Source: an uncultured Actinomycetota bacterium (lineage in GTDB: Bacteria > Actinomycetota > Actinomycetes > DATJPE01). Taken from it: a stretch of DNA of 64,000 bases. Of the stretch, positions 4,800-64,000 are shown piece after piece; the first letter of the stretch is position 1; each line of letters begins with the position of its first letter. Both the position numbers and the translations under genes were made by a program. A model generated the notes under the pieces. The model made no database searches, was not told the DNA's origin, and saw only the letters and a program-made list of their open reading frames with translations. The stretch is taken from assembly GCA_963820065.1 (NCBI GenBank), contig CAWFYM010000002.1, positions 27,103 to 91,102 of the forward strand, written 5' to 3'.

Positions 4800-5148
4800 C
4801 CCGTGATCTCGGAACTGTGGAAGGAAACGACTTCAAACCGCCCGAGAAGAGGGTGCGGGTCGCCCGTGACCATTGGCCCAGGGGCGGTCATCCGCGAGGA
4901 CTTTGGAGAGGTCGACCATGTTCTCAGGCTATCCAGTCCGGCCGGGCGGCAGGATGAAGCCGGGCTGTGGGTTCCGGGCCAAGGTTGGCCGAGTCATCAC
5001 GCGCTGAAATGGAGGTGCTCGGGTTTTCGAACTCGTGCCGAAACGCCTTTGCCGCGCCAATGGTTGTGCCAATGCCAGCGCGAGTCCTGGACTCCGGGAC
5101 CGCCTATACCCGCAGTTCTGCGTCCGAGCTGGCAGAGGGGCAGCCTGA

Positions 5149-22941: not shown

Positions 22942-23580
22942 ATGAACCTGGGACCCACGGAGCTCGCGCGCCTGCTGGTCTTCCAGGTCGCCGAGATGGC
23001 CCGGCGAAACCGTGCTGCGGGGCTCAGCCTCAACGCCCCGGAGGCCATCGCCATCGCCTGCGACGAGATGCATGTGGCGGCGCGCGCTGGGGCGAGCTTT
23101 GAGGAGGTTCACCGAGCTGGGTATCGCTCAGTGACTCCGGACGACCTCATGGAGGGTGTTGCCGATCTGATCAGCGAGATCAGGTTGGAGGTTCTGCTGG
23201 CTGAGGGAAGCCGCCTCATCGTGCTGCGTGATCTCGGCAGGGCCGAGGAGCTGGACGAGCCAGCGGCGCCGAGGAGGGCGGACGCTGCCCCCGGCGCCAC
23301 ACGGCTAGGCGACGGCGCGATCACTTTGAACGCGGGGCTCGGTGTCGTCGAGATCGAGGTGCACAACACGTCCGACCATCTCGTTCGGGTGTCGTCCCAC
23401 TTTCCCTTTGACCGAGTGCAGGCCCGCCTGGTGTTCGATCGCGAGGTTGCCGCCGAGTGCCGGCTCGACATCCCGGCCGGAGACACAGTCCGGTGGGGGC
23501 CGGGCGAGACGAAGACGGTGCGCCTGGTTCGCATCTCCACAGCGCACATCGATGACACCGATTCTGAAGCGGGTGCTTGA
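22942..23580 (+). CDS. ureAB: Urease gamma-beta fusion subunit
   Basis: MNLGPTELARLLVFQVAEMARRNRAAGLSLNAPEAIAI (gamma) is joined to ITLNAGLGVVEIEVHNTSDHLVRVSSHFPF (beta) in one 212-aa ORF. Confidence 0.9.
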   Translation: MNLGPTELARLLVFQVAEMARRNRAAGLSLNAPEAIAIACDEMHVAARAGASFEEVHRAGYRSVTPDDLMEGVADLISEIRLEVLLAEGSRLIVLRDLGRAEELDEPAAPRRADAAPGATRLGDGAITLNAGLGVVEIEVHNTSDHLVRVSSHFPFDRVQARLVFDREVAAECRLDIPAGDTVRWGPGETKTVRLVRISTAHIDDTDSEAGA

Positions 23581-34414: not shown

Positions 34415-34418
<4 letters not shown>

Positions 34419-36544
34419 GGCGGTCTCAGCGGAAGTCGTGCTTCCACAACTCCGCCACGGTCGCCGGGACCGGCGATGAGCGTGCCGCCCAGTTCGCGCA
34501 CACGCGCCTGCATGGCCTCGAGCCCGACGCCTGCCTTCCAAGGTTCGCGCCGCTCACCGTCGTCACGTACTCCCACGACCAGGCAGTCGGTCACCTCAAG
34601 GCTGACGACCGCGAGCGACGCCGCCGAGTGGCGTGCAGCGTTGGTCATGGCTTCGGTGGCGATTCGGAAGGCGGTGACCTCGACCAGCGGCGGCAGGCTC
34701 GGAAGGGTCTCTGGTGCGACCACGCGCACGGTGAGTGGTGTGTCTGTCTCGGGTCGAGAGAGTTGCAGGGCGCGCTGCTCGAGGGCACCGATCAGGCCGA
34801 CCCGATCGATGGCCTCGGGGCGGAGGCCCTCGACCAGCCGACGAACCTCGAGGAGGGTCGCTCTCGCATCAGCCCCCAACTCGCGAAGCACAGACGCGGC
34901 CCGCTCAGGGTGAGCGGCGACAAGATTGGCCGCGGCATCGGCGGCCAGGCCGATCCCGGTCAGCGAAGGCCCCAGTCCGTCGTGGAGTTCATGCCGTAGG
35001 CGTTGGCGCTCTTCCTCCCGGGCGGCGATCACCATCGTGCGTGAGACGCGCAGTTCCTCGGAGACCACCAGCGCATGCACGGCGGCTGACAAGGGAGCGG
35101 CGACGAGCGACAGCGCCTCCTCGTCGAGCGAGGTCAAGTGACGCTCGCCGGGCCGGGGTTCCACGACCAGCTCGCCGACTCCGGCCCCGCCGTATCGCAG
35201 CGGCAGTCGGTGTGGCGTCGAAGCAGGAACACCGGACACAGCCAGGGTTTCTGGACCTGCGAGGACCGCGACGTAGGGGAGCTTCAGCCCATTCCGGATG
35301 GCATCGGCGACGGCGTCCAGATCGCCGAGCCCGTCCAACTGCTTGCCGACTGCCCCGACGACCGCTGCCGGGTCGCGGCGGGCGCCGTAGACGAGCCGCT
35401 CGACGGCTCGTCTGAGGCTCGGAAGGGCGAACGCCGCGGCGACGGCGACACCGGCCGATAGAACGGCAGCGCTACCGGTCCGGTCGACCAAGGTCGCATC
35501 GAACGCCGCGACAACCAGCGCGCTCCCCAGGACAACGACGCTGCTGAGCAGGAGCCAGGTCAGGGCCCGCGAGACGAAGGGCCGAATGTCATACAGCTGG
35601 CCCCTGAGGATGGCCACCGCCACCGCGGCGGGGATGAGCGGGATAGCGAACAGCACCAGGATCGGGGTGCCGGCCACCAGGCTCCAGGGAATCACTCCCA
35701 GCACCACGATGGACGTCGCGAGGATGAGCCAGAGCAGCTGCTGCCTCGTCCTTGAGTCGCCATGGCGATAGCGGACGACCAGTGCAGCGACCCCTGCTCC
35801 CAACGCCGCGAGCGTCCGCAGCTCTGCGACGATCCATACCGATGCCAGGCTTTGGTAGTCGGGGATTGAGCCCCAGGCTGAGGGCACCCCGGGTTGGGGC
35901 GGAACAGGATCAGCGCCCGCGTCGAGCGCGAACAGCGGGGCGGTCACCACGACAGCGATCAACACTGGCAGCCACCGTCGGGAGGGCAGGCGACCGTCAG
36001 GGAACACGAGCAACATGACGGGCAGGAACAGACCGATCGACCACGGCCACGACCAGGTGAAGACAGATACCGCCGTCCTCACCACACCGCTAGGAGCGCC
36101 CTGATCCTGGAGCACCGAGGCGGCCGGCGCCGCCACCGCGCTCAAGAGGTGACCGAAGCCGTCGAGGGTGAGCAGCCATCCAACGGGGTTCCTTGGTCGA
36201 AACCAGACGATGAACCCGCCGCAGATCGCGAAGGACGCGCCGATCAGGGAATTGCTGACGACGAAAGCGTTGAGACTGTCCGACCAACTCCAGCCTGCCA
36301 CCCGAGTCAGTGCGATCGTCGTGGCGACCATGGCCGCGGCAGCGAGAAGGGCGAGCGTTGCAGGGACGGAAGCATTGTGGACCTTCTGGTCAGCGCCGCC
36401 CTCTCGCACGAGCCCAGTGTGCCCCTCCCAGGGTCCCGACGCGGAGGGAATCTCTCCCGGGCGTGCGGGATCCCGTCCCGCTCCGAGGTCCGCCCTGAAC
36501 TGTGACGGGGGAACGTCTGTCGGCCAGCGTGAGTGCCCCACCAC
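34415..36544 (-). CDS. Sensor histidine kinase (HisKA_3), paralogue of the kinases at 127 and 45152
   Basis: 709-aa ORF with a polytopic N-terminus. Motif IPAAVAVAILRGQLYDIRPFVSR, H-box EERQRLRHELHDGLGPSLTG and an ATPase domain. The start codon is uncertain. Confidence 0.85.
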
Positions 36545-36561
36545 AGGATTCCGGAGGACAC

Positions 36562-37299
36562 ATGGACACCGACCGCCTTGCCGTCGAGGAGATTGCTCTG
36601 CACAAACCCGTCCGCGACCTGCGCAGGACCTCGAGACTCCTTGCTGCGGTGATCTTGCCGGTGGGTCCTCTCGCGGTGGCCGTCATCAGGGCTGTGCTGC
36701 CTTACTACACAGCGACCACGAACGGGCAGACGGTGGACGACGTGGTGGCCGACCCGGGCCAGCAGTCTGTGGTGCTCTGGGCTGCCTTCATCGCGGCGTT
36801 GACCCTGCTGCCGGGGATCCTTGCGGTCGGCCGCCTCACCCGCCGACGGGCTCCGACCGCGACCTTCGTGGGAGTGCTGCTGGCCGGCGTCGGCTACCTC
36901 GTGCTCCCGATCATGGTTGCGGCCGACGTCCTTCTGTGGACGGGGGCAAACGCTCAGCTCGACCGGGCATCGCTCGTCCATCTCATGGACTCGGTGCATC
37001 CAACCGTTGGCCTCGCGCTCGCCCTGTTCGTGTTGTGTCACGTGACTGGGACGGTGGTGCTGGGTGTCGCGATGTGGCGCAGTCGAGCTGTGCCCAGATG
37101 GGCGGCCGTCGCCACGGCGGTCTCACAGCCTCTGCACTTCATCGCCCTGGTCATCCTGGCGAACGCCGTCGTGGACACCGGAGCCTGGCTCCTCAACGCC
37201 CTGGGCTTCATGGCCGCGTCGGTAGCGATCCTGCGGTTGTCCGATGACGAGTGGGAGCTCCCGTCCCTCCCTCGCGAGCGAGCAGATCAGGGCGCCTGA
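36562..37299 (+). CDS. 245-aa DUF4386-like membrane protein, paralogue A
   Basis: GGAGG then ATG at 36562 with six hydrophobic helices. MWRSRAVPRWAA and the C-terminal LRLSDDEWELPS match the protein at 47270. Confidence 0.7.
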   Translation: MDTDRLAVEEIALHKPVRDLRRTSRLLAAVILPVGPLAVAVIRAVLPYYTATTNGQTVDDVVADPGQQSVVLWAAFIAALTLLPGILAVGRLTRRRAPTATFVGVLLAGVGYLVLPIMVAADVLLWTGANAQLDRASLVHLMDSVHPTVGLALALFVLCHVTGTVVLGVAMWRSRAVPRWAAVATAVSQPLHFIALVILANAVVDTGAWLLNALGFMAASVAILRLSDDEWELPSLPRERADQGA

Positions 37300-44486: not shown

Positions 44487-45155
44487 TCACACCTGCGGCC
44501 GGCCGAGGCCAGCCTCCCGCGCCCGGATGATGGCCTCGGCTCGGTCGGCGACCGACAGCTTGGCGAAGATCGCCGAGATGTGGTTGCTCACTGTCTTCGT
44601 GCTGATCACTAGTTGCTGCGCGATGGCGGTGTTCGACCGACCAGCGGCGACGAGGTCGAGGACCTCGCGCTCGCGAGACGTCAGCTCCGGGAACGGCGCG
44701 GCTGCCGTCGCCGCTTGGTGACCGCGGGCGAAGAAATCGATGATGCGGCTCGCTACTGAGGGTCCGAAGACGGCCTGCCCGGCGGCGACCGCCCTGATGG
44801 AACGCAGGATCTCCTCCTGCTGGGCGCCCTTGACAACATACCCTGACGCTCCGGCTCGCATGGCTGCGAAGACTGAGTCGTCGTCCTCCAGCATGGTCAG
44901 CACGAGGACTCGGGTTCCCGGCGAGCTGCGCATGATCGCCCGCGTGGCGTCGACCCCGTTCGTCCCCGGCATGTTGAGGTCCATGATGACGACGTCGGGG
45001 TGGGTGAGCTGGACCTCGCGGTGGGCAGCCTCACCGTCGCCCGCCTCGCCGACCACGTCGATGTCGGGCAGCGAGGCGGCCAGCGCCCGGAGACCGTCAC
45101 GCATGAGCGGGTGGTCATCGACGATGACCATCCGAATGATCGACGGCTCGTTCAT
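44487..45155 (-). CDS. NarL/LuxR-family response regulator
   Basis: ATG at 45155 overlaps the kinase stop (ATGA). Receiver IRMVIVDDHPLMRDGL and HTH LTSREREVLDLVAAGRSNTAIAQQLVISTKTVSNHISAIF. Confidence 0.9.
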   Translation of the reverse strand: MNEPSIIRMVIVDDHPLMRDGLRALAASLPDIDVVGEAGDGEAAHREVQLTHPDVVIMDLNMPGTNGVDATRAIMRSSPGTRVLVLTMLEDDDSVFAAMRAGASGYVVKGAQQEEILRSIRAVAAGQAVFGPSVASRIIDFFARGHQAATAAAPFPELTSREREVLDLVAAGRSNTAIAQQLVISTKTVSNHISAIFAKLSVADRAEAIIRAREAGLGRPQV

Positions 45156-47116
45156 GCGGGGTTCAAGGGAAGGACGGCGTGGACCCACCCGCCCTGGTCG
45201 GTCGGGCCAGCGGTCAGGCGACCGCCGAGCTCGGTGGCACGCTCGTTCATGGACATCAGTCCGATGCCCTGCTCCCAGGGCGCTGCTGGTCTTCCCCCGT
45301 CGTCGCTAACTTCCACGTGTAGGCCACCGTCGACCCGAACGGTGATGGCACAACAACGGGCATGGGAGTGGCGCAAGGTGTTGGTCACCGCCTCAGCCGC
45401 GATCCTGTACGCCGCTACCTCCACCGCCGCAGGCATCGAGGGCAAGGACGCTGGGGCGTCGATCGTCACCCGGAACGACCCGTCGTCCCTTCGCCAGGCG
45501 TGGTCGGCGCGCTGGCGCAGCGCACCGACCAGACCGAGCTCGTCGAGGGCCTGGGGACGGAGGTCTTGGACGAGGCGCCGGATCTCGTCGATGGTCGAGG
45601 TGAGGTCCGACCGTAGCTGGACCAACAGCTCGGCGGTCTGATGGGGATCAGAGGAGGAAAGGTTGTGGGCGGCATCGACCTTAAGGGTGACCGCGGTGAG
45701 AGCGCTCCCCAAGCCGTCGTGCAGGTCCCGTCGCAGTCGGCGTCGCTCTTCCTCTCGAGCGGTGACGATCCGGGCCCGCGAATCCTGCAGCTCATGTGAC
45801 AGGTTGACCGCCTGCCAGGCCAAGGTGATCGGCGCAACGAGCATCGTGAGGGCTCGGCGGTCGGCGGCAGACAGGTGAGACTCCCCGGGCCGCAAACCGA
45901 TCAAGAGGTCCGCGTCAGGTCCGTCCGGGACATCGAGGGCGAAGGTTTCGGCGTGCTCCGGTAGCCGGCCATGGTCGGTCACGACCCGGCCCCCTGCGAT
46001 CACGGCGACGTACGGGAGGCGCAGCGTGTCGCAGACCGCGGCTAGGACTCCGTCCAACCCGTCTCCCAGGCGAACGACAACCCGGGCGGTGGCGTCCGAA
46101 GGGTCGCGCCGGCGGCCGTACAACAAGTGGTCCACGCTCGACTGCAGACGAGAACGAACCGGCGCGAAAGCCACCGCGATAGCGCCGACGGCGACCAAGG
46201 GGGCGGCCTCCGTGTGCTGGGTGGAGAAGTCGCCGAGAAGCGCCACTAGCCCCAGGTAGGAAGCGACGACGCCTGCCGTCAGGAGACCGTAGACGATCGA
46301 CCGGTTGACGATCAGCGAGATGTCGTAAAGCTCGTAGCGAACGATCGCGACGGTGGCAGCCGCGGGGATCAAGGCCATCGTCAGCAAGAAAAGAACCGGC
46401 CCATTCGTGGTAACCAGGCGTTGCGCGTTGAGCAGCACGAACACGCTGACGGCCCAGAGCAACCACATCACCTGAAGCCGTTCCACCCCAGTGGAGCGAC
46501 GCGCTCGTAGGCCAAGCGACACCACGCTGATGAGCAGCACGAGCAGTCCGAGGCCGACGAAGAACGGCAGCACGCCCGACGCGACCTGTCCTGCGCCGTC
46601 TGGGAGCAGGGGTCCACTGTCCGCGATCTCCTCCTCGGCCAGGGCGTCAGGTCGGAGAACGAGAAGTGGCGCAGTCACCGTCAACCCGAGCGTCACGGCG
46701 ACCAGCCACCGCCAGCGATCCGAAAGCGGGCGACCGTCCGGAAATAGCTGCAGGATCAGGGGAAGACAGACGAGCGGCGCGGGAATCCAGATACTGATGC
46801 CGACGGCGGTGAAGGCGCGCTCCCAAGCCGGGCTCAGGTCGCCGACGCCCGTGACTATTCCGAGGCAGGCGACGCTGGCGGTGTAGCAGGCACCGAAGGC
46901 CACGAACAGGCGGCCGATCGGGTGCCCAGAGCGTTGGCTGAGGACGAGGACTCCGAACCCGGTGAAGGTCAGCGCCATGACGGAGTTCGACAGGAGGTAC
47001 GAGTCCGCCGCGTCACTCAGCGTGAAACCGCCAGCGAGCCACGACACCCAGGCGCCGAAGACCAGCAGCACCGTGAGAGCAGCCGCCACGGCGGGAAGTC
47101 GCCCCTTCGCGGTCAT
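45152..47116 (-). CDS. Sensor histidine kinase (HisKA_3), paralogue of the kinases at 127 and 34415
   Basis: 654-aa ORF with a polytopic N-terminus. Motif IPAAATVAIVRYELYDISLIVNR, H-box EERRRLRRDLHDGLGSALTA and an ATPase domain. Confidence 0.85.
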   Translation of the reverse strand: MTAKGRLPAVAAALTVLLVFGAWVSWLAGGFTLSDAADSYLLSNSVMALTFTGFGVLVLSQRSGHPIGRLFVAFGACYTASVACLGIVTGVGDLSPAWERAFTAVGISIWIPAPLVCLPLILQLFPDGRPLSDRWRWLVAVTLGLTVTAPLLVLRPDALAEEEIADSGPLLPDGAGQVASGVLPFFVGLGLLVLLISVVSLGLRARRSTGVERLQVMWLLWAVSVFVLLNAQRLVTTNGPVLFLLTMALIPAAATVAIVRYELYDISLIVNRSIVYGLLTAGVVASYLGLVALLGDFSTQHTEAAPLVAVGAIAVAFAPVRSRLQSSVDHLLYGRRRDPSDATARVVVRLGDGLDGVLAAVCDTLRLPYVAVIAGGRVVTDHGRLPEHAETFALDVPDGPDADLLIGLRPGESHLSAADRRALTMLVAPITLAWQAVNLSHELQDSRARIVTAREEERRRLRRDLHDGLGSALTAVTLKVDAAHNLSSSDPHQTAELLVQLRSDLTSTIDEIRRLVQDLRPQALDELGLVGALRQRADHAWRRDDGSFRVTIDAPASLPSMPAAVEVAAYRIAAEAVTNTLRHSHARCCAITVRVDGGLHVEVSDDGGRPAAPWEQGIGLMSMNERATELGGRLTAGPTDQGGWVHAVLPLNPA

Positions 47117-47269
47117 GGCTCATTGTGCGCCCGTGGTTGCCACCTTGGGGTAGGGGCAAGCACCCATCTCCAGTAGGAGAAGCCGGGACAGATGGGTGGG
47201 CGACCCCGCGACAGCCAGCTGCGGTCTGGCCCACAGTCGAGCCAACACGATGACAAACGAGGAGCCACC

Positions 47270-50530: not shown

Positions 50531-51240
50531 CAGGCGGCCTTCCGGTCCATGTGGGTGCTGTTCGCGCCGTGGTACTCCACGGCGTCTTGGGTGAGTTCCA
50601 GGAATGCTTCCTCGAGCGACGCGGCCTGCGGGGTTAGCTCATGCAGGGTGATGTGGTTCGCCATGGCGACGTCCCCGATGGTTCTCGCTTCGAGACCCTC
50701 AACGTCGAGCACGCCGTGGTCGCGGGAGACGACCGTCACCTGCGGTGAGGCGAGCAGGTCGCGTAAGGCTGTGGCGTCCGGGGTCACGACTCGCACTCGG
50801 CTGGTCGACGCGGCCGTGATGAACGCGGCCATGCCCACGTCGGCGAGGATGCGGCCGCGGCCGATGACGATGAGGTGTTCCGCAGTGAGCTCGAGCTCGC
50901 TCATGAGGTGGGAGCTGAGGAATACCGTGCGCCCTTCGGCGGCCAAACTCTTGAGGAGGTTGCGGATCCACAGGATGCCATCGGGGTCGAGGCCGTTGAC
51001 CGGCTCGTCGAGCATGACGATCTGGGGATCGGCCAGCAGAGCCGAGGCGATGCCCAGCCGTTGACCCATCCCGAGAGAGAAGCCGCCCGCGGGCTTGCGA
51101 CCGACGTCGGCCAGGCCGACTACCTCGAGGAGGTCGTCCACCCGTCCGGCTCCGATGCCGACGGTGGCGCCGAGCGCCAGCAGGTGGTTGCGGGCTGACC
51201 GGCCTTTGTCGACCGCCTTGGCCTCGAGCAGAGCTCCAAC
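50530..51240 (-). pseudogene. ABC transporter ATP-binding protein, 5'-truncated (no Walker A)
   Basis: The signature and Walker B (FSLGMGQRLGIASALLADPQIVMLDEPVNGLDP) and H-loop (VFLSSHLM) are present. Homology begins only at VGALLEAKAVDKGRSARNHLL, and the N-terminal third is absent. Confidence 0.8.
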
Positions 51241-51250
51241 GGGGCTGGTG
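51230..51250. other. Breakpoint between two unrelated sequence blocks (contig join or chimera)
   Basis: The truncated ABC ATPase (minus strand) and the truncated kdsD (plus strand) meet within about 10 bp, with no spacer, repeat or mobile-element end. Confidence 0.7.
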
Positions 51251-52090
51251 GGGCAGAAGCTGGCCGCGACCCTCGCCTCGACCGGCACCCGGGCGTTCCC
51301 GCTCCACCCGGCCGAGGCGGTCCACGGCGACCTCGGGCCGGATCCGGGCCGACGACGTGGTGATCGCCCTCTCGCAGAGCGGCGAGACCGAGGAGGTCCT
51401 GCGGCTGATCCCGGCGCTCCGGCGGATCGGCGCCAGCCTGGTGGCGATCACCGAGCGGGCGACCAGCACGCTCGGGCGGGCGGCCGACCTCTGCATCGCG
51501 CTGGGGCCGATCGAGGAGGCCTGCCCGCTCGGCCTGGCGCCCGTCGGCCAGCACGACGGCGATGATGGCCGTCGGCGACGCCCTGGCGCTCCTGGTCAGC
51601 CGGATGCGCGACTTCTCGCGCCGAGGATTTCGCCCTCTATCACCCGGCCGGCAGCCTGGGGCGCAAGCTGATGCGGGTCGAGGACGTGATGCGGACCGGC
51701 CGGCACATCCGCCGGGCGCAGCGTCGACGAGACCGTCCGCGAGGTCTTCGTCCGGCTCGCCGGCCCGCGGCGGCGGTCGGGGGCGGTGCTGGTCGAGGAC
51801 GACGACGAGCCGGCTGCTGGGGATCTTCACCGACAGCGACCTCGCCCGCCTGTTCGAGAAGCGCCGCGAGGGCGACCTCGACCGGCCGATCGGCGAGGTG
51901 ATGACGCGCCGACCCGTACCGGGTCGCGCGTCGGGCTCGATGCTGGCCGACGCGGTCGAGCTGATGAAGGCGCACAAGATCAGCGAGCTGCCGGTCGTCG
52001 ACCGGGGCGATCGCCTGGTCGGGCCTGATCGACGTCACCGACCTGATCGGCCTGTCCCGCCGCCGACTTCGAGGAGTCGACGCGAGCTGA
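51240..52090 (+). pseudogene. kdsD: Arabinose-5-phosphate isomerase (KdsD/GutQ: SIS + 2 CBS), 5'-truncated with at least 6 +1 frameshifts as written
   Basis: GLVGQKLAATLASTGTRAFPLHPAEAVHGDLG; DDVVIALSQSGETEEVLRLIPALRRIGASLVAITERATSTLGRAADLCIALGPIEEACPLGLAP; MMAVGDALALLVSRMRDFS; RVEDVMRTG; LLGIFTDSDLARLFE; AHKISELPVVDRGDRLVG. These pieces lie in successive frames. Confidence 0.75.
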
Positions 52091-52094
52091 CGCC

Positions 52095-52653
52095 CGACAC
52101 GACCTGCCGCGATCCCGGCGGAACTCGCCGCGCGTTGCGCGGCGATCGAGCTGCTGGCGGTCGACGTCGACGGCGTCCTGACCGACGGCGTGCATCGTCG
52201 TCGACGACCAGGGCGTCGAGTCGAAGCATTTCTACGTCCGCGACGGCCTCGGCGTTCGCGCTCTGGCAGACGCGCCGGCAAGCGGTCGGCGATCGTCTCG
52301 GGCCGGTCGGCCGAGGTCGTCGAACCGCCGGGCCGCCGAGCTGAAGATCGACCGCGTCGCCCAGGGGATCGACGACAAGGCGTCGGCCGTTCCGGGCGCT
52401 GCTCGCGGAGTTCGGGCTCGACGCCGCGCAGGTCTGCTACGTCGGCGACGACCTGATCGACCTGCCGGCGCTGCGGTCGGTCGGCCTGGCCGCCTGCCCG
52501 GCCGACGCCGTCGCCGAGGTCCGCCAGGCGGCCCATCTCACGACCCGCGCAACCGGAGGAAGAGGCGTCGTCCGCGAGGTCGTCGAGGTCGTCATGAAGG
52601 CGCAAGGGCTGTGGCACGCCGCTTGCGAGGGGTACCGCGTGCCAGCGATGTAA
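52095..52653 (+). pseudogene. kdsC: Kdo-8-phosphate phosphatase (KdsC/YrbI HAD family), about 5 +1 frameshifts as written
   Basis: IELLAVDVDGVLTDG; HFYVRDGLG; GKRSAIVSGRSAEVVE; ELKIDRVAQGIDDKASA; VCYVGDDLIDLPALRSVGLAACPADAVAEVRQAAHLTTRATGGRGVVREVVEVVMKAQGLW. Confidence 0.75.
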
Positions 52654-52763
52654 GCGGGCTCAGGCGGAGCCGCCGTCCCAACCGGAAGTTCGTCCGTGCG
52701 CGATCGAGGTCGTCGCTCGATCGCCGGAACAGGAACTCGCCGACGTTACGGAATGGTTAATTC

Positions 52764-55700
52764 GTGTTCAAGACACTCTTCAAGCTCGTGACCGTGTTCG
52801 GCCTCCTGGTGGTGCTCCTACCAGGGGTACGTCCGCGCGTTCGCGTTCGTGATCAACCGCCTGACCGCGGACCGCCACGTCGACCAGATTCCGTTCGAGC
52901 TCCACGACTCCGACGCCGTGCCGGGGGCCAAGGAGATGGCCCGCGTCTACTTCGGCAAGGACCACTGGACGAGCCGCCCCGACGTCGCCGCTCCACTTCA
53001 ACTCCGACCGCGGCATCTACCTGTATCGCCAAGAAGATCGCCCCGCCCGAGGGCGAGGACGGCGTCAAGGCCGACGGCAAGCGGCTGGTGTTCAAGGGGT
53101 CGCCGTCATCCTCAAGACGCAGGGCGGCCGCAGCACCAAGATCATCACCAGCGAGGAAGCCCGGCTCGACTTCAACAAGCGGCTCGGCTTCGACGCCAAG
53201 CCCGAGCGCCGAGCCCATGACCGTCAAGCACGCCCGGCTCGAGCGCAACGTGATGATCCGCGACGACCGCGGCACGCCCGACGACCCGAAGGACGACATG
53301 GTCGTCGGCCCGCTGACCTGGATCGAGTACGACGACGACAAGCTTCAGGTCCACACCGATTCCGACATCCTCCTGGTCGACCGCGACCTCCGCGTGACGG
53401 CCACCGGCCTGGACATCAAGCTCCGGCCCAAGACCGACCCCAACCGGCCGAGCGGCCCCGCCACGGGCTTCGAGGGCGCCGAGAGCGCCGTCTTGCGCAA
53501 GAACGTCAACATGGTCTTCGGCGACGTCGGCAGCACCGGCGTGCTTCCCGGCGCGGTGAAGACCAAGAAGACGGCCGACGGCAAGATCGTCGCCGAGGCC
53601 GAGGTCGACCCCAAGCTCGCCCAGAGACCGAGCAAGAAGCCGGCCGCCGCGAGCCCGTGCCGCTGAACATCCAGTGCGACGGGCCGATGCAGATCGACCT
53701 GCCCAACGCCCCCATGCCGGTGAAGGTCGGCCCGCCCGCGCCCCCCGCGCCGACGCTCGTCCGGTACAACCGCAACGTCGTCGTCCGCCGCGGCAAGCTC
53801 ACCGAGCTTCCCGACCAGCTCAACTGCGACACCCTCGACCTCACGCTCCTGCCGGCCGAGAAGCCCGCCACGAAGCCCGACGACGCCGAAGCTCGACGAC
53901 GGCTCGCCAAGGCCGACAAGCCGGCCGCGCCGCGAAGCCGCCGCCGCGGCCGACGGCGAGGAGAAGGGCCTCTTCGGCGGCCTGGCGCTCCGCCGGGCCA
54001 AGGCGAGCGGCCACGCGGTCTGGCTCCAGATGCCGTCGCAGGGCGCCAAGGTCCTCTGCATCGAGCTGATCCACAACAAGGACCCGCTCACCGGCAAGAA
54101 CACGACCCACTTCCTGGGCGGCTCGCGGCGGCTGATGGTCATCAAGGAGGACGTCGCGCCAGGAAGGCCCCGACAAGGGCAAGGTTCAGTCGGTCACCCA
54201 CGTCTGGTGCGCCGACGCGACCCTGATCGACGACGGCGACATGGACCGCGCGCACCCTCGTGGCCAACGGCCCCGGGCTGCTGGAAACCCGGCCCGGCCC
54301 CAAGCAGGGGAGGGCCCCCCAGGCGAGACGCCCCCCGACCGCACGGCCGTCTGGCAGGACCAGCTCTGGCTCCGGAACGAGATCGGCCCCGACGGCGCGA
54401 TCACCGGCAAGATCATCGTCCTCAAGGGGCAGCCGCGCGTCGTCAGGACCGGCTCCAGAAGGCCTCGCTCGACGCCGCCGACAGCATCGTCGTCTGGCTC
54501 GAACTCGAAGCCCGAGGCCCCCAAGACCGCCACGACGCTCGACCTCGCGAGGTCGTCCCCGCCGCCTACACGGCCGCCGATCCGGCCTCGACCGCGCCCA
54601 AGCTCGGCGGCGGCGGCATGACCATCCGCCGGCTGCTGGCCGTCAAGGACGTCCACCTGGTCACGCCCGTCGCACGACATCCGCTACCGCGAGAGACCTC
54701 GACGTCGACTTCCAGCAATCCAAGATCACGCGCGCTCGCCCCCGGCGCCCGGCACGCCGCGCCCAAGCCCGTCGCGCCCCCGCCGCCGCGCCGGAGCCGC
54801 CGCCGACGCCTCCGGCCGGAGCCAGTCGGCCGCCCCCGCGCCCAAGCCGGCCGAGCCCCTGATGACCGCCGTCGGCCGACCGCGTGCAGGTCATGATGAT
54901 CGTCGGCCCCAAGCCGCCCGCGCACCGGCCAAACGGCCGCGTCGGCCTCGACTCGCCGATTCCCGGCGGCTCGGACGCGAACTACCAGATCCGCGACGTC
55001 GACGATGCGCGGCGGGGTCGTCCTCCATCAAGACCCCGAGCCGGGCAAGACGAAGGGGACCGACGCCGTCGGCGAAGTCCTCATCCTTCGCAACGACGCC
55101 CCGGGCAAGGCGGTCTTCGACCTGTATCACCACGATCCGTACTCGATCAAGACCCGCACGCATCAACCCCGAGACCATGCCCCGCGCCCGGGTCGAGACC
55201 GAGGAGATGACGATCGAGGCCAAGCGTCATCGGCGTCAACCAGACGACCAACCAGGCCTGGGCCTACGGCGCCGGCAAGCTCACCCAGATGACCGACCGC
55301 GGCCTCCTGACCGACCGCTCGCCCGACGCCCAGAACCAGCGCCGCAGGACGGCGACGACAAGACCGTCGTCGTCGACAAGCCGCAGAAGCGAGCGGGCAA
55401 GGTGAAGTCCGAGAAGACCAAGATCACCATCACCTGGGCCGACAAGATGACCTTCGAGGGGGTCACGGTCGACCCGTATGAACCGGCCCGCCGCCAAGGC
55501 CGTCTTCTACAACAACGCCCGGGCCGAGATGGAAGACGCGCGTGCTCTACGGCGGCGAATCGATCACCACCTACACCGACCGGCCGATCCCGCTGGCCGA
55601 GGTCGGCAAGCTGACCCGGAAGCCGAAGCCCGCCGCCGCGCCGCGAACGCGGAGGACCTGCCGGCCGCCGGCGCGTCGAGGACGAGAACGAGAAGCCCGA

Positions 55701-56750
55701 CCTCGCGCTCATCGTCTGCAAGGGCGAGCCGGGCGCCGTCAGGAACGCGACATGGCCGTGGCCATCACCCGCAAGGTCGATCCCGACCGGCCGGTCCTCA
55801 TGAGCCTGCAGAAGCTCGCCGGTCCAGCAGCTGACCTACGACCGTCGCAGCGGCGAGTTCCTCGCGCCGGGGCCGGGCATGGTCTACCTCTACGACCGTG
55901 AGAACGACCCGACTGAAGCCGAAGGACAACGCCCGCTCCGGCCCTGACCGCCGCGCCGCGTCGGATCGTCCAGCCGACGGCCTACCAGGCAGGCGGCGAC
56001 GGCGACGACAAGGTCGCCGTCCGCAACGCCGACGCGCGGCGCCGCCGTCCGCCGGGACGCCGCGCAAAAGTCGCTGCTGCCGCCGCTTGATCCTCACCCA
56101 GATCCGGTTCAACAAGGAGATGCGCGGACGGTTCGGGACCGGCAAGCAAGACGACGTCGATCAAGCAACGCTGGGCCGAGTTCTTCGGCGGCGTCGAGAC
56201 GGCCCGCTGCGAGGTCCCGGCGTGCTGAAAGCGCCGCTCAACTACGACCACCTGCCGGCCAACGCCTACTTCCTGACCTCGGAGACCCTCCGCGTCATCA
56301 CCGAGCCGCCTCCGGCCGGCTCCGCCGCGGAACGCCCCGAGCCGCAACTTCCTGAAAGCCTGGGACAACGCCTCCGTCACCGCCCGCGACACCACGCTTC
56401 AGGCCGACGTGATCACCTATGATTCGCTCAACGACCTGGTCTACGCCAACGCCCTGGAAGGCCGGAAGGTCCAGATCGCCCAGCAGAACGGCCTCGGCCA
56501 GCCGATCTCGCCGGGCACCGCCACCGGCCGTGCGGATGAACCCCAAGACCGGCGCGGTCGACATGGCCAACCCCAGCGACATCCAGTTGATCGACCACCA
56601 CACCGGCAAGCGTCCCAAGGCGGTCAAGGACTCCGAGCCCGAACCCGGCACCCAAGGACGGGCAAGCCCGCCAAGCCCAAGGAGAAGCGCAAGCCTCCCA
56701 GGCCGCCGCATCCAGAACCGCATGGAACGCCGGGGCTTCACCGGAAGCTG
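52764..56750 (+). pseudogene. Very large N-terminally membrane-anchored protein (possibly LptC/OstA-like by position), many frameshifts as written
   Basis: N-terminal anchor FKTLFKLVTVFGLLVVL, then protein-like segments hopping between all three plus frames for about 4 kb (for example PLNIQCDGPMQIDLPNAPMPVKVGPPAPPAPTLVRYNRNVVVRRGKLTELPDQLNCDTLDLTLLPAEKP). It occupies the slot after kdsD-kdsC. The LptC/OstA family assignment is not verified. Confidence 0.4.
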
Positions 56751-56759
56751 ACCGTCGCA

Positions 56760-56787
56760 TCGCCGGGGCACGCGAACGCCCCGGCGA
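56760..56787 (+). terminator. GC-rich stem-loop after the large ORF (possible terminator)
   Basis: TCGCCGGGGC-acgcgaac-GCCCCGGCGA, a 10-bp perfect stem with no U tract. Confidence 0.3.
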
Positions 56788-57066
56788 CTAGCACGAAGCT
56801 CGCCCGTTCGTCGAGCTGTTGAATCCGCTGAGGCTCATGATGGGTCTTCGAAGTGGCGGCTGTTCGATAGCCGGGGTCTGTGCCCCGAGACCGGGCCGAC
56901 GTGACCGACCTCAACAGAGGCCGGCTACAAGCCGGCCGAGACGACATTGGCAAGCCCGTCACCCCGATATCCATCATGAGCCTCGTCGAGATCGTCAGTG
57001 CAACATGACGGTCATCGATCAACGCCTTCTATCCGAGGCCGTCTTGGTTCAGTCGCCGCTCCTCGA

Positions 57067-58205
57067 TCAATACACCTCGCCCGGCGCGGGGACCGTGGGA
57101 CGAGGGGAGGGCGGAGGAGGCGGCGGCCGGCGAGGGTAGCGGTGGTGCCAGCCTTCGACGGCGCGGATGGTGTTCAGGTCGTCGCGGGTCAGGCCGTAGC
57201 GGCCGAACCAGGGGGTGCCGAGTTCGCGGACGAGGGCGTCGACCTCGGCGACCCGCTGGCGGCCGGTGGTCGGCGGCGAACTCGGTGCGGGCCGCGGCGT
57301 CGGGCTGGAGGAAGTACTCCTTCCAGAAGGCCCGGCCGCCGAGGACGCCCGCGGCCCCGGCGCCCATGCGCCATCTCGACCTGCACGAGATAGTCGGCGT
57401 AGTCGACGCCCGCCGACAGCAAGCACCCAGGGGCGCTCGCTGGCCGCGTCGAGCGCGTGGAGGTTGTCCTCGAGCTGCTCGTCGCTCTCGCGGCCGAGCG
57501 TGCCGGGGAACTCGGCCTTGTAGACGTCGCAGAACCGGCTGAGCTGGCGGGCCGACTCGATCACCGTCTCGGCCTTGCGGTCGAGGAACGAGGCGTCGGT
57601 CTTCTTCTCGCCGCCGAAGGGGAACGCGACGGTCTCCAGCAGCAACAGGATGTCGTGCTTCTTGCACTCGTCGTAGACGTCGCTCGATCATCGCCGAATT
57701 GGTGCTCGGCCGAGTGCGGCTCGGTCGGCTCGAACTGGGCGAGCAGCTTGACGGCGTCGGCCCCCATCAGCTTGATCTTCTCGACGCTCCAGCCCGGCTC
57801 GACCGCCGCCAGCGGCGCGCCGACCTTGTTCTTGGGGCTGGCCGACTTCTCGACCCGGACGAGCAGCCCCTTGTGCGGGCGGGATCGCCCCCGAGGCGAT
57901 CGCCGACCAGGCGCCGTAGTAGGCGTCGATCAGCACGCCCGAGGCCGCCGGGCGCCAGCGTGCCGCATCAGGTCGAGCTTGGCCTCGACGATCTCCTCAT
58001 AGGTCGGCGTCGCGGTCCTCGCCCCTCGGCCTTGAGGGCCTTGGCCGCCATGTCGATCACCGAGCTGTTCTGGTCGAGGGCCAGCATCGTCAGCGTGCCG
58101 TTGGGGTTGCTGATCCGCTGCAGGCCCCGCAGCTTGCCGGGCGTCAGCCCCTTGCTCAGCAACGTCGTGGCGCTCAGCTTGGCGCGAGGTATCCCCGAAC
58201 GACAT
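57067..58205 (-). pseudogene. LacD-like class I aldolase (tagatose-1,6-bisphosphate aldolase family), several frameshifts as written
   Basis: [29 protein letters not shown]; [18 protein letters not shown]; KLMGADAVKLLAQFEP; LLLETVAFPFGGEKKTDASFLDRKAETVIESARQLSRFCDVYKAEFPGTLG; LSAGVDYADYLVQVEMA; GVLGGRAFWKEYFLQPD. These pieces lie in successive frames. Confidence 0.65.
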
Positions 58206-58604
58206 GGCCGACCTTCTTCTCTGTCTGGACGCCTACCGAAATTCCGACGAACGAGCCGCGACCGCATTCTAACCGGCTCGCGTGGCCGACGCCAGGCCGA
58301 CGCGATTGCGGACGCGCGGGCCAATCGCTTACGAACGGCTCGATCCGTTCGGACACGTCTGATGGCCGATGCATGGGCGCGGCGTGGCCGGGATCCGGCC
58401 AGCGTGCTCGATACACAAGGGATTGCGAGCACGCCTTGACTTCGTTCGCACCGGGCCCGCTCGACTGGGGCCGGCGTCCGGGCCGCGACGGCTCTCCCCC
58501 GTCGCATTCGCATCGCATTTCCATCCAACGTACGCGGGCCGGCCGCAGGCGTCCGCCCCCAGAGAGGGACCGCCACGGCCGCCGCGGATCGGAGAGTCTC
58601 CGAC

Positions 58605-59672
<1,068 letters not shown>

Positions 59673-59879
59673 GCCGACGCTTGAGCCGCGATCCGTCGGA
59701 AAAACTCCAGCCGCCCGCCGCGAGCGTCGATAACAGTGTGTCGGATGGAAGATCCGACCCGGTCAGGGAAGACCGAGACCAGGCCCCGTAATCCTCGGTC
59801 GCGTCCAGGGACGGATGCGCGACCCGCGGGCCAAGGGCCAGGGAAGGCCCCTGCTTCAGATATTCGCGGTATCGCAAGC

Positions 59880-59914
59880 GCCCCGCCGGTTTCACGACCC
59901 GGCGGGGCGTTTTG
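59880..59914 (+). terminator. Rho-independent terminator
   Basis: GCCCCGCCGG-tttcacgac-CCGGCGGGGC followed by GTTTTG. Confidence 0.6.
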
Positions 59915-59950
59915 CATTGCGCCGGCCGTCGCGACCGAACCTGCGATGCC

Positions 59951-60515
59951 TCAGCGGGCGCCGACGCCGATCAGCACGCGCATGCCGTCGCTGAGCGCCC
60001 GCTCGTAGAAGAAGAGCTGGTTCTCGGGGGCGTCGACCAGGGTCGAGAACCGCTGCTCGGTCGCCGTCGATCAGCTCGCAGCGGAGCCGGACGCGGCCGA
60101 AATCGTCGGGCGAGGGGGCGCCAGCGTCGTCTCGGCCCGCCAGCCTCGGCCCAGGTCGCACGTCAGCGATCTCGCCCGGCATCGAGCCGGCCGCTCTGCA
60201 CTTCGAGCAGCTCGAAGCCATGATCGGGCAAGACCTTGCGAAGCTGCGCCTTGACGCTCGACAGCCGGGGGTCGATCTTCGACTCCCCCGGCATCGCCCG
60301 GATCGCGAACACCGTCACCTGCGGCGCCGCGGCGGGATCGCGACGTGGGAAGCCGCGGATGAAGGGGCGTTCGGGAGGGGGGAGCGGCGACCGGCGACTC
60401 GCGCACCAGGTCCGGCAGTCGCTGCGTCACGATCAGGCCCGAGACCGAGACTCCGACGACGACCAGGGCGATCTGGAACCAGCAGCGTGTAGTCGCGCCG
60501 CCGGGGCGTGGGCAC
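59951..60515 (-). pseudogene. Hypothetical membrane-anchored protein downstream of the anti-sigma gene, frameshifted as written
   Basis: MPTPRRRDYTL, the TM segment FQIALVVVGVSVSGLIVTQ, then VTVFAIRAMPGESKIDPRLSSVKAQLRKVLPDHGFELLEVQSG and a tail ending at the TGA (59951-59953). The pieces lie in several frames. Confidence 0.35.
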
Positions 60516-60522
60516 GAGAGGC

Positions 60523-61069
60523 TTACTCCGACATCGCGACGACCGGGCTGATCGTCATCGATTCCAGGAGGTTGTAGGCCAGGTACCAGGCGTCCACCCC
60601 GCCGGCGCCGAGCTGGGCCGACAGGTCGATCGCCTGCACCGTGTCGGCGTTCGAGCGGATCAGCACGAACTGGCCTTCCTCGATCCGCACGTTCGAGCGG
60701 TCGCAAGCTGGCCATCCGTCGATCCGCACTACCGGCTCGCGGTCGGCCCCACGCCATCGACAGGCCGAGGGCCAGCAAGATCGCCGCGGCCTGGGCGAGC
60801 ACCACCGTCGCGGCGGCGGCGGCCACCGCCAGCGGAGCGTCGGCGTCGCGACGGAGCGACGTGGACGGACGCCTTCACGTCGGGCCACGGCCGGATGAGT
60901 CGGACGCCGTCGCGGAGAGCCGATCAAGATCGTCGGCGACCGACGTCCAGACCTGATCCCACGCCTGAGCCGAGGGCTCGACCGGACGGGTCGCCTCCCA
61001 CAGGGCGTCAAGCCGGGCGGCCGGATCGCGGATTTCTTCGTCGCCACGCATCGTTCCCATCCTCTCCAA
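60523..61069 (-). pseudogene. Putative single-pass anti-sigma factor, frameshifted as written
   Basis: It starts 7 nt after the sigma stop. Cytoplasmic N-terminus (MRGDEEIRDPAARLDALWEATRP), TM segment AAAAATVVLAQAAAILLALGLSMAW, then an extracytoplasmic tail ending at 60523. Confidence 0.45.
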
Positions 61070-61075
61070 ACACCT

Positions 61076-61656
61076 TCAGTCGAGCCCTTTGAGCTGGTTC
61101 CAGTCGAGCGCCGCCTGCAACTTCTCGCGGGCCGCGTTGATCCGGCTCATGACCGTCCCGATGGGGACTTCCTGGGTCTCGGCGATTTCCTTGTAACTCA
61201 TCCCAAGCTCGGCGAACAGGACGAAGGTCGTGCGGATCTTGGGGGAGAGCCGGTTCCAGCGCCTCGTCGAGCGCCCGTCGCAGGTCTTGCTGTCGCAGCC
61301 GCCGTCCCGGGTCTTCGTCGATCGTCGCCGTCCGAGGTTCGCTCGTCGAGGGGGACTGTTCGCTTCCGCTTCCGGCTCCGACCCCAGTCGAGGGCCGAAT
61401 TCGAGACGATCCGCAGGAGCCAGAACCGGAACCCGCCCCGGCCGTCGAAATCGGCCAGCCGCGAAAACGCCTTCAGCAACGATTCTTGAACCACGTCGAG
61501 GGCGTCGTGCTCGTTGCCCAGCAGCCGGTAGGCCACCCGGTAGGCGTCGTTCCGATGCCGCTGAAACAGCTCCTCACGCGCCGCCGAATCCCGCTGCCGG
61601 GCACGCTGAACCAGGACTTCATCGGTGATCGGCGCGATCGTCGGGGCCTCGAGCAT
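61076..61656 (-). pseudogene. ECF sigma-70 family factor, two +1 frameshifts as written
   Basis: Region 2 is intact (REELFQRHRNDAYRVAYRLLGNEHDALDVVQESLLKAFSRLADFDGRGGFRFWLLRIVSNSALDWGRSR). Region 4 (SPKIRTTFVLFAELGMSYKEIAETQEVPIGTVMSRINAAREKL) lies in another frame and ends at 61076. Confidence 0.75.
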
Positions 61657-62302
61657 ACGATCTCCTACCCATTGCAGACGCCGAACCGCCCGGCCTTATT
61701 CGCCCCGCTCCGAGGCGGCGTCGCCAATCTATTATCGCTCAACGCCCATCCGAGTTCACCCGCGTTCGGCCTGTTTCACCATGGACGGCACGGCCGCCTC
61801 GCCCGTGTCGGCGTTTCGGGGTTGACCACTTGAGGCGATCCTTGCAAAATGCGGCCCTCAAGTAACAGGAGGTTCCACACCCTTGGCATTCACTTCTTAC
61901 GCCCGGCCCCTTGCGACTTGAGCCCGAATCGGCTGACTGGCGAGCGGGGAGACGGACCGAGCCCCTTGCAGCGGGCGATCGTGAAGACCAGGAGGTCTTG
62001 CGGACGGTCGCGGCGGGGGAGCGGCTCTTCTCGAACGCGAAGGCGGCCCTCGGGTCGCGTTTTCGACTACGAGAACGGACTGGTCCGCAAATCGCCGCGA
62101 GATTCATGCTCTTCAGGAGGAAGATCGGATCTCGACCCGCGAAACTCGCCCGAAAACCTTCGGGATCGCATCGAGCCGGCCTACCGACCGGGACGGTCGA
62201 GCGCGACCGAGGAGGTCGACGACTGACGGGGGTAGGATGGAGATCGATCAGGCCCTCGGTAACGCCGAATTCATGCAGCTATCAAGGAGGATACTCGCCG
62301 TG

Positions 62303-62940
62303 ATGCGTCGTTGTTTTGCCCCCACGGCAGTACTGGCGGCCACGTTCATCCTGGCGATGGACGCGCGGACGGACGTGCCCACGCCAGCACCATCAATCCG
62401 AACGCCTCGACGGCCGTCGCCGAATTACCGACTCACCGTGAACGGCGGGCTGCCGGTCCCGGACGCCAACATCGCCGGCCCGCAAGTCGTGGCGATGGTC
62501 GCTCCGGCCGGCGGTGTCGTCCCCCCGACCAACGCCGACGGCACCCAGGGCAGCCCCCTGACCGTCCTGAGCGACTCGACGGGCTTCGACCCCAGCCAAC
62601 TGGTCGTCGCCCTCAAGGACGCCACCAGCGACGTCGGGCGAACCGGAGCAACTGCTCGGCCTGGTCTTCTTCGGCAAGGGCCTCGACGCCGACGGCGTGC
62701 TCCACTTCAGCCTGAGCATCGACAAGGCGCTCGCCGCCAACCCGCCGACGCTCGTCTCGTCCACTCCGGGCGTCACCATCACCGCCGACTCCGTCGCTCC
62801 GCCGACCGACGGATCGGCTCCGGCGGCTCGACCAACCCTCCGACCGGAGAACGTCCCCGAGCCGGTCGCCGTGCATGCTCTGGTCGGCCGTCGCCGGCGC
62901 CGTCGCCCTCCGCGCTCGCCGGCAGTGCAGCGAGCGCTGA
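62303..62940 (+). pseudogene. Secreted protein with a PEP-CTERM sorting signal, frameshifted as written
   Basis: AAGGAGG then ATG at 62303 with signal MRRCFAPTAVLAATFILA. After a 1-nt correction the C-terminus reads VPEPVAVMLWSAVAGAVALRARRQ. Confidence 0.55.
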
Positions 62941-63197
62941 AAACTCGACGCGGCCGTCGACACGCCCGGCGTACACACGTTCGCCGCGGCGTTTTTTTAC
63001 TCGCGAATCGCGGCGACTTTTTTGAACTCGCCGTGAACTGCAAGCCGCCAACCTGACTGGTTTCCCGGGAATCTTCCTCGAAAAAACTGTAGCGTGACGC
63101 AAAACGAATCAAGCATAATCACAAGACACAAGGGATGACGTACAGCCCGCTGGCTTGCATGACCGCTCTTCAGAGCGTACCTTAATAGAGCCAAGCC

Positions 63198-63970
63198 ATG
63201 AACGACACCCCCGCGCACTTCATCGCCGTCTGTCCGAGCTGCCTGCTCGGATTGAGGGTGAACTACGAGTACAGTGGGCGGATGGTCCGCTGTCGTCACT
63301 GCGACGAGGCGTTTCGTCCGTTCTCGCCCGACTTCGGCTCGGCCTCGGGATCGGCGGAATACGCCGTGGGGCCGGTCGCGGCGGCCGAGGACCGAACCGG
63401 AACTGGTCGTCTCGTGCCCGGAGCTGCGCGACGACGTTGAGCGTGCCGCGCCCGGTACGCGGGCCGTCACGTCCGTTGCGGCGGCTGCCGGCACAAGTTC
63501 CTGGTCGTCCCCGACAGCGGCGACCGGCGAATCCCGCCGAAGCCTCCGATAGCCGACTCGGACCCGGCCGATCAGGACGAGCGGACCCCCGATCCCGACG
63601 TCAGGCGGAGCGAGATCGCCCGACTGACCGAAGAAGTCGCCGCGCTCCGCGAACGGAACGACCTGCTGCTCGCGTCGATACGACGAATTGAACGCGAAAT
63701 CGAAGCCTGAAGGCCCAGGTCCAGCAACTCGAAGCCGATCGCGAGGCGGCCGAAAGCCGGATCGCCAAGCTGACCGATCGCGTCGACCGCAACGCCCCGT
63801 CGCCCAGGCCCCGTGGGGCTCGCCTCGATCGACGGACGAGGACCAAGACCGCGACGACACCGCCCCGCGACCTTCCCCTTCCGCTCGGAACGCTCGGCCT
63901 CCTCCGGCCGCTGACCCGGTCCGCTGCTCGGCTCGGGCCGAAATCACCTCCGGAGGCGACTGGCAGCTGA
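63198..63970 (+). pseudogene. Zinc-ribbon plus coiled-coil protein, frameshifted as written
   Basis: CPSCLLGLRVNYEYSGRMVRCRHCDEAF, a second CP..C-type ribbon in a shifted frame, then the coiled coil EIARLTEEVAALRERNDLLLASIRRIEREIEALKAQVQQLEADREAAESRIAKL across a frame change. Confidence 0.45.
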
Positions 63971-64000
63971 GCCGCTTATTTAATCACAATGCATCTGTTT

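Follow-up and report, generated by a model that had tools for sequence, protein, structure and literature searches.

Serial single-base insertions in an Isosphaeraceae-like segment that is probably mis-joined to an actinobacterial contig

Introduction

The closest described counterparts of the locus reported here are the residual errors of long-read (meta)genome assemblies. The locus occupies positions 51240 to 64000 of a 64,000-nucleotide stretch from an uncultured Actinomycetota bacterium (the window; contig CAWFYM010000002.1, positions 27,103 to 91,102, assembly GCA_963820065.1), and in it gene after gene changes frame through extra single bases. In long-read assemblies, single-base consensus indels split conserved genes into several open reading frames (ORFs), as seen in IDEEL-type analyses (Sereika et al., 2022; PMC9262707); these indels are confined to poorly supported contigs or regions, and reference-guided frameshift correction restores the full-length proteins. 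Homopolymer indels in particular fragment gene calls below about 40x depth (PMC9262707). The window shares the splitting of conserved genes and its reversal by correction, and it shows a clear contrast between a clean and an error-laden part, but it differs in the errors themselves: the described ones are homopolymer-associated and of both signs (PMC9262707), whereas those in the window are about 97% insertions, about 80% of them without an identical neighbor and many at sites that vary among relatives.

In its architecture the window resembles chimeric inter-genome metagenomic contigs, with an abrupt switch of phylum affinity and codon usage, genes truncated on both sides and synteny with relatives that runs from the breakpoint; unlike in the usual cases, the breakpoint also divides a clean half from an error-laden half, which suggests very different read support for the two. 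Many disrupted genes in a row are also found in bacterial pseudogene decay, but decay is deletion-biased and brings stop codons and relaxed substitution patterns, none of which occur here. Finally, as in collapsed-haplotype consensus artefacts, some insertions (at 52191, 52019, 51720, 51803 and 53025) can be read as two alleles in tandem that match two relatives; the support for this reading in the window is statistical and only partly replicated. We know of no curated description of this exact tandem-allele signature, and a literature search for this specific artefact returned general accounts of long-read indels only.

The segment is, very probably, a piece of Isosphaeraceae (Planctomycetota) DNA mis-joined to an actinobacterial contig, and its frameshifts an artefact of assembly and consensus within a chimeric contig. 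The fuller statement, which adds a gap-averse consensus step that writes alleles in tandem as the mechanism, we consider reasonably probable.

Results

The window consists of two parts, which meet at 51240. In the left part, 89% of the sequence is covered by 41 coding-like ORFs (median 313 amino acids, aa), and ten long ORFs yield full-length Pfam architectures; an 837-aa protein shows an intact DAO/FAO_M/GCV_T/GCV_T_C architecture, and the Amidohydro_3 protein two genes left of the break matches positions 9-470 of the 472 in its profile. To the right, the median is 110 aa and the coverage 36%. The G+C content at third codon positions is 81% on the left (1-51240) and 97% on the right (51241-64000; A+T about 3%), whereas overall G+C is similar, at about 0.67 in the actinobacterial and 0.69 in the Isosphaeraceae part; bulk composition is thus blind to the chimera. 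The features around the junction are the following.

50533..51240, minus strand: ABC-2-type transporter ATP-binding gene, with which the clean actinobacterial part ends; the 5' end of the gene is removed by the junction, with about 73 N-terminal codons gone.
51238..51242, no strand: seamless chimeric breakpoint, with actinobacterial-type DNA on one side and Isosphaeraceae-type DNA on the other; the genes lie head to head, both 5'-truncated.
51242..52079, plus strand: kdsD (KpsF/GutQ-family arabinose-5-phosphate isomerase; SIS domain and two CBS domains); about 113 N-terminal codons are missing and it starts at about codon 114.
52090..52650, plus strand: kdsC (KDO-8-phosphate phosphatase), with five single-base insertions at about 52191, 52250, 52269, 52323 and 52389.

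Both genes at the junction, the ABC ATPase on the minus strand and kdsD on the plus strand, are cut in mid-domain. The Pfam ABC_tran profile is covered by the former only from position 82 to 137 of 137, and 236 homologous residues are present where homologues have 309-313 aa; these 236 codons run up to 51240 free of frameshift and gap. Relatives of this ATPase include Nakamurella, and the closest are on two ENA contigs, L083 (ERZ25039459 contig_134083) and L084 (ERZ25039527 contig_80366), with which the nucleotide similarity of the left part ends at 51237. The ABC homology ends within 51237-51240. Similarity to two Isosphaeraceae-type contigs, L001 and L081, begins precisely at 51240, with the 30 bases upstream unrelated, and no bases at the junction are unaccounted for. 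Taxonomic affinity and composition thus switch at a single point, from Nakamurella-type on the left to Isosphaeraceae/Singulisphaera-type on the right; it is at this point that the genes are truncated and that synteny with relatives starts or ends, as in a mis-join. The public protein collection contains both a 252-aa ORF that spans the junction (P0121) and a frameshifted 229-aa aldolase ORF (P0001), which share a contig of 107,411 bp; the record as deposited thus already has the mis-join and the frameshifts, and neither originated with the window.

Intact references for the right-hand genes come from related Isosphaeraceae sequences (L001, L081, L082 and the protein P0241). L001, a contig of an Isosphaeraceae metagenome-assembled genome, was found at 92% amino-acid identity in a scan of species-representative genomes, for which residues 1-155 of the class I aldolase, a stretch free of damage, served as the query; it is syntenic with 51240-59672 of the window at 67-85% nucleotide identity, and has a single ORF each for kdsD, kdsC, a 1,341-aa gene, a 400-aa DeoC/LacD aldolase and the class I aldolase. 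L081, a short-read contig and the only relative returned by a metagenome scan, is 87.5% identical to 51240-53537 and encodes intact KdsD (392 aa) and KdsC (192 aa). The 120 best homologues of the repaired DeoC/LacD aldolase in a protein search are all single proteins of 359-383 aa, several of them named Isosphaeraceae or Singulisphaera; L082 is the DNA of the best of these, with 89% identity to the window. In related contigs the gene order is thus conserved and each gene is a single, uninterrupted ORF, as expected if its interruption in the window is an artefact. With about 89% nucleotide identity in the closest DNA found, some insertions cannot be assigned to one particular base.

Frame changes were located with our own frameshift-aware dynamic-programming alignment of intact proteins to DNA, cross-checked by nucleotide alignments with relatives 87-89% identical, and, free of any reference, with a 7-state Viterbi frame tracker. 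The tracker replaced a sliding tracker of third-position GC phase, which was too noisy, and the aligner replaced tblastn alone, which blurs frames because alternative frames of GC-rich DNA resemble one another.

The 4,380 nt of coding sequence that align well contain 33-34 single-base insertions and one clear deletion (0.75% per base; sign test p ~4e-9), distributed as 10 in kdsD, 5 in kdsC, 4 in the start of a large gene downstream, 11 in the DeoC/LacD aldolase and 3 in the class I aldolase. In-frame stops are absent from all corrected alignments. The Viterbi tracker assigns 24 changes to the +1 class and 7 to the -1 class in the right part (plus strand); in the left part it gives 8 and 7, which are mere gene boundaries. 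The errors start at the junction and run to the end of the window at a spacing of about one per 100-130 bp, and six-frame translations show the same +1 stepping in the genes for an ECF sigma factor, a putative anti-sigma factor, a hypothetical protein, a VPEP-tailed protein and a zinc-ribbon protein. An earlier reading of this DNA from the sequence only had claimed serial +1 frameshifts in every gene right of 51240, with no nonsense codons in the conserved segments, and had proposed frameshift-aware alignment and a table of indel signs as the check; both claims hold, the former more strongly than it was made.

Against the intact 392-aa protein of L081, kdsD aligns at 86% identity with ten +1 events and no others, at about 51334, 51539, 51620, 51720, 51803, 51907, 51926, 51932, 52019 and 52056, and the nucleotide alignment concurs; a possible further insertion lies at the stop codon (~52078). 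The sequence-only reading had the direction of these shifts right but counted six where there are ten, since the insertions at 51907, 51926 and 51932, within 26 bp, cancel in frame and were missed. The corrected product scores 255 bits on TIGR00393 (cut-off 203.7). KdsC aligns at 84% identity to the intact 192-aa protein, with no events in its conserved part other than the five listed above, which bear out the serial +1 shifts claimed for it; the corrected protein matches positions 1-153 of the 154 of TIGR01670 at 147.5 bits (cut-off 107).

Two aldolase genes lie further downstream.

57070..58205, minus strand: tagatose-1,6-bisphosphate-aldolase-like gene (DeoC/LacD family) with 11 single-base insertions; absent from the list of the sequence-only reading.
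58605..59672, plus strand: class I (FbaB-type) fructose-bisphosphate aldolase with three single-base insertions, at 59066/7, 59136/7 and 59413/4.

The insertions in the former lie at about 58182, 58033, 58012, 57962, 57952, 57879, 57704, 57680, 57422, 57369 and 57271; in its divergent C-terminus one base is missing at 57128 and two at 57089, a net change of -3. It is 87% identical to P0241 (376 aa), and was aligned to L001 as well. In the class I aldolase, all three events are C|G pairs at third codon positions, where removal of either the C or the G leaves the same amino acid. The corrected protein is 90% identical to that of L001 and scores 673 bits on NF006707 (cut-off 327; positions 5-355 of 355), and its coverage of the DeoC profile rises from 2-89 of 229 in the raw 229-aa ORF to 2-229 of 229 when the frames are joined. 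The breaks had been placed near 59068, 59135 and 59410 and are found at 59066, 59136 and 59413. The claim that deletion of exactly one base restores a conserved motif is generally borne out, except that FGTVEEAYDMG is better read as FGTVKEAYDMG, by deletion of C59066 or G59067, which matches L001. The two DeoC/LacD-family aldolases are divergently transcribed, and L001 shows the same arrangement.

Between kdsC and the aldolases lies the largest gene of the segment.

52761..56745, plus strand: large conserved Isosphaeraceae gene of about 1,340 codons (1,341 aa in L001, at L001:4445-8470), with an N-terminal membrane helix and a weak LptC-like match; likewise not listed by the sequence-only reading.

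Its first 777 nt carry +1 events at about 52815, 52987, 53025 and 53206 and a -1 event at about 53096; the claim that the segment has no -1 step was therefore slightly too strong, although deletions are almost absent overall. Over its whole length, comparison with L001 gives 30 frame changes, 21 of class +1 and 9 of class -1 modulo 3, with about 25 of the changes downstream of the first 777 nt, where reference identity is 53%; because identity is this low, the roughly nine '-1 mod 3' changes cannot be told from two close +1 events, and they sit mostly in divergent, low-complexity, poorly conserved stretches. The LptC match (E = 0.005) is below the family cut-off; the protein may be a greatly enlarged LptC/LptA-like periplasmic bridge protein. 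It also carries proline/alanine-rich linkers and is conserved among Isosphaeraceae.

For the class I aldolase, KdsC, the KpsF/GutQ-family isomerase and the ECF sigma factor (see below), single-base repair thus restores the family match without stops, as expected of an artefact.

The extra bases themselves are mostly not those of homopolymer errors, which narrows down the processes that could have produced them. When the closest DNA references are used to identify it, the inserted base is the same as an adjacent one in 2 of 19 events in the region covered by L081, in none of 3 in the class I aldolase and in 5 of 11 in the DeoC/LacD gene, in total 7/33; random insertions simulated in the same sequence and recovered with the same aligner give 42-45%, from which 7/33 differs at p = 0.004-0.01. 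The homopolymer-run signature classically left by long-read, 454 or Ion Torrent sequencing is thus not seen. Several events can be read as two alleles written side by side, one of each relative.

52190-52193: window G-T-G-C; L001 GTC (Val); L081 GGC (Gly); event 52191, G/V.
52018-52021: window G-T-C-G; L001 GTG (Val); L081 GCG (Ala); event 52019, A/V.
51719-51722: window C-A-G-C; L001 CAC (His); L081 CGG (Arg; window allele CGC); event 51720, R/H.
51801-51804: window GA-C-G; L001 GAC (Asp); L081 GAG (Glu); event 51803, E/D.
53024-53027: window T-A-T-C; L001 Tyr; L081 TTC (Phe); event 53025, F/Y.

An event was counted as two-allelic if two adjacent bases differ and removal of the one or the other yields precisely the residues, themselves different, that two relatives carry. 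Seven of 19 events do so, against 7.7% in simulation (p = 3.5e-4), and 9 of 30 when the DeoC/LacD gene, held out from the first count, is pooled with them (null ~7.5%; p = 2.5e-4). A looser form of the test, against the residue sets of the 120 homologues, gives 4/11 against a null of 21% and is not significant (p = 0.19). Event density is 0.28% in the class I aldolase, the most conserved gene, and 0.9-1.2% in kdsD, kdsC and the DeoC/LacD aldolase (Poisson p = 0.04); a density that is lowest in the most conserved gene is the pattern of real polymorphism, unlike that of random noise.

The same mode of error recurs outside the window, in L083 and L084. Over about 11 kb (L083:1-11058 against L084:95-11190) these contigs are 93% identical and differ by 119 single-base indels, 75 extra bases in one and 44 in the other; 28% of these adjoin an identical base and 72% do not (p = 8e-5 against 45%). 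Both contigs contain split or fused genes, such as a topA in pieces and fused kinase-regulator genes. The frame tracker gives ratios of +1 to -1 class changes of 14:6 and 20:9 in 14 and 21 kb of the two, against 1 to 3 changes in total on the short-read contigs L001, L081 and L082, and both frameshifts in L083/L084 that can be checked against intact proteins are +1. As the mode recurs in independent public assemblies, a pipeline artefact is favored, and both biology and an editing of the window are disfavored. The ENA analysis accessions gave no paper in a full-text search. At L083:11058-11120, the similarity of L083 to L084 and to the permease gene of the window ends in the middle of an ABC permease gene, about 3 kb from the contig end; this abrupt stop may be another mis-join.

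The remaining genes of the right-hand part, between 59.9 and 64 kb, are as follows.

59900..60318, minus strand: hypothetical gene in three frames that step in the +1 direction, VTVFAIRAMPGESK, then VRLRCELIDGDRAAV, then STLVDAPENQLFFYERALSDGMRVLIGVGAR up to the stop codon (by eye, from six-frame translations).
60523..61069, minus strand: putative anti-sigma factor gene that follows the ECF sigma gene and changes frame between its N- and C-terminal parts (by eye, from six-frame translations).
61076..61656, minus strand: ECF sigma factor with two +1 steps, one in the linker at about 61300-61330 and one at about 61247-61256 (GAACCGGCTC, coding strand).
62237..62950, plus strand: secreted protein with a tail of VPEP, a hydrophobic stretch and RARR, with +1 steps at about 62638 (GG(G|C)) and 62874 (GT(G|C)).
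63198..63950, plus strand: protein in which a coiled coil comes after two zinc-ribbon-like CxxC...CxxC repeats, read in frames 0>1>2>0 and then one more change (by eye, from six-frame translations).

The raw 152-aa ORF of the ECF sigma factor matches Sigma70_r2 only, while the join of its three frames covers r2 (1-70 of 71), r4_2 (1-54 of 54) and Sigma70_ECF (7-183 of 185); two shifts in the same sense had been claimed on this minus strand, and both are recovered, at about 61300-61330 and 61250. For the VPEP-tailed gene the sequence-only reading was right about the +1 direction but gave one step where there are two (~62638 and ~62874), and its PEP-CTERM label is not confirmed by Pfam or NCBIfam: the frame-corrected protein has no match in either at E <= 0.01, and the tail was seen by eye only. 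Both of its events are again C|G pairs at third codon positions, where either deletion leaves the same amino acid. The zinc-ribbon-like repeats, read from translations, lie within 63198-63710 and have the forms CPSC...CRHC and CPE-C...CGGC.

In the left part, the content is ordinary for an actinobacterium. The 837-aa protein is dimethylglycine- or sarcosine-dehydrogenase-like, and a urease alpha subunit and two large HisKA_3 sensor kinases are also present; the coordinates listed for these four proteins are 2319-4832, 23568-25295, 34415-36682 and 45152-47119.

Discussion

Intact syntenic relatives, restored family matches, the lack of stops, the scarcity of deletions, the clean 51 kb to the left and the recurrence in L083 and L084 together argue for insertion-biased consensus error, as the sequence-only reading had proposed. 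The proteins, which it took to be probably intact in the source organism, are single ORFs in the relatives, and the corrected translations regain full-length family matches. The locus is neither decaying nor recoded and is not a real biological feature; its genes (kdsD, kdsC, the LptC-like gene, the aldolases, the ECF sigma/anti-sigma pair and others) are no doubt intact in their organism of origin.

As to how the extra bases arose, the consensus step may have been gap-averse and may have worked from a few slightly different reads or strains, so that every base present in any input would be kept and each deletion repaired. A substitution between co-assembled strains, if handled as an insertion plus a deletion, would then be written as both alleles in tandem; alternatively, a likelihood polisher that penalizes a deletion in a read far less than a substitution could lead to the same outcome. 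A better-covered actinobacterial population would give the clean left half, and a chimeric read or a mis-join in the assembly graph the seamless junction. Such a mechanism would account for the sign bias, the lack of stops, the mixture of neighbor-identical and non-identical insertions, the matches to variation among relatives and the rare deletion. The tandem-allele, gap-averse detail is our best mechanistic guess, and we give it about an even chance.

Several points weigh against this account. The 'few reads' and 'mixed strains' are inferred, and the source of the window may or may not share a project or pipeline with L083 and L084. Some consensus code turns mismatches into indel pairs, which is no more than a lead here. 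The base missing at about 53096 is missing according to both L081 and the frame tracker. The two-allele test was devised after examples had been seen and was therefore rerun on the held-out gene at 57070-58205, where it gives 2/11 against a null of 7% (p = 0.19); the depletion of neighbor-identical insertions is not replicated in that gene either (5/11). Lastly, pairs that are synonymous at third codon positions are not enriched (17/34, against 40-46% for simulated random insertions), and this statistic was not used as evidence.

An alternative is that the bases are plain sequencing noise, random and unlinked to polymorphism, from one or a few noisy, insertion-rich long reads; this would still be an artefact, and we regard it as a plausible but less likely source of the insertions. 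Their one-directional and roughly even occurrence, at about 0.3-1.2% per base in every gene, would follow from it, as would the random rate of neighbor-identical insertions in the held-out gene (5/11) and a synonymous-pair statistic equal to random expectation, and long-read assemblies are known to leave gene-breaking indels at modest depth (PMC9262707). But the residual errors known from such assemblies are homopolymer indels of both signs (PMC9262707), whereas here insertions prevail by about 33:1 and 21% are neighbor-identical; nor would random errors be expected to produce allele matches to two relatives in 9 of 30 events (p = 2.5e-4) or a lower density in the most conserved gene, and an origin in raw reads predicts substitutions and stops, where no in-frame stops are seen.

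Readings in which the segment is not an artefact fare far worse. The seamless junction in a public contig and the disruption of every right-hand gene could be taken to indicate a planctomycete fragment that was transferred into an actinobacterial chromosome and is decaying there as pseudogenes; decay, however, mixes deletions, insertions and stops, against the 33-34 insertions, one deletion and no stops found, and the codon usage is pristine (third-position GC 97%), the corrected proteins are 77-90% identical to those of relatives, both junction genes are cut in mid-domain, and the same insertion mode affects unrelated actinobacterial genes on other contigs, all of which makes transfer and decay highly improbable. 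Purposeful editing or simulation, whether to plant a test case or through synthetic reads whose error model allows insertions only, is likewise very unlikely: it would explain the regular, one-directional pattern and the abrupt join of the halves, but P0001 and P0121 were already public on the 107,411-bp contig, independent ENA contigs share the mode, and the inserted bases are non-random with respect to their neighbors and to variation among relatives. The 'deliberate editing' that the sequence-only reading had offered as its other option is thus unsupported, both ORFs being already in the public protein collection. Expression in spite of the insertions, by programmed +1 ribosomal frameshifting or transcript editing, has the consistent +1 direction in its favor and no further support; with about one event per 100-130 bp in every gene, three of them within 26 bp at 51907-51932, 3-11 sites per gene that have no slippery or stimulatory motif in common, insertions absent from the relatives at every site and none in the left 51 kb of the same contig, its probability is negligible. 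Taken more generally, the idea that the extra bases are real, whether in an inserted planctomycete segment with insertion-only mutation or through systematic +1 recoding or editing, is extremely improbable, and would require that one process struck unrelated genes in two further public contigs as well, yet left the adjacent 51 kb untouched.

The biological significance of the frameshifts in the mis-joined segment is nil, and the right-hand genes are ordinary. The consequences are for the use of the record: the public 107-kb contig is chimeric and unfit for taxonomy, binning or claims of horizontal transfer, and truncated or chimeric ORFs such as P0001 and P0121 are now in protein collections as if they were real. 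The error mode, almost purely of insertions, mostly outside homopolymers and recurrent in public contigs of long-read style, is one that quality control focused on homopolymers would miss. If the tandem-allele reading is true, such contigs could be repaired without reads, and the sites of the insertions would reveal polymorphism in the populations from which they come.

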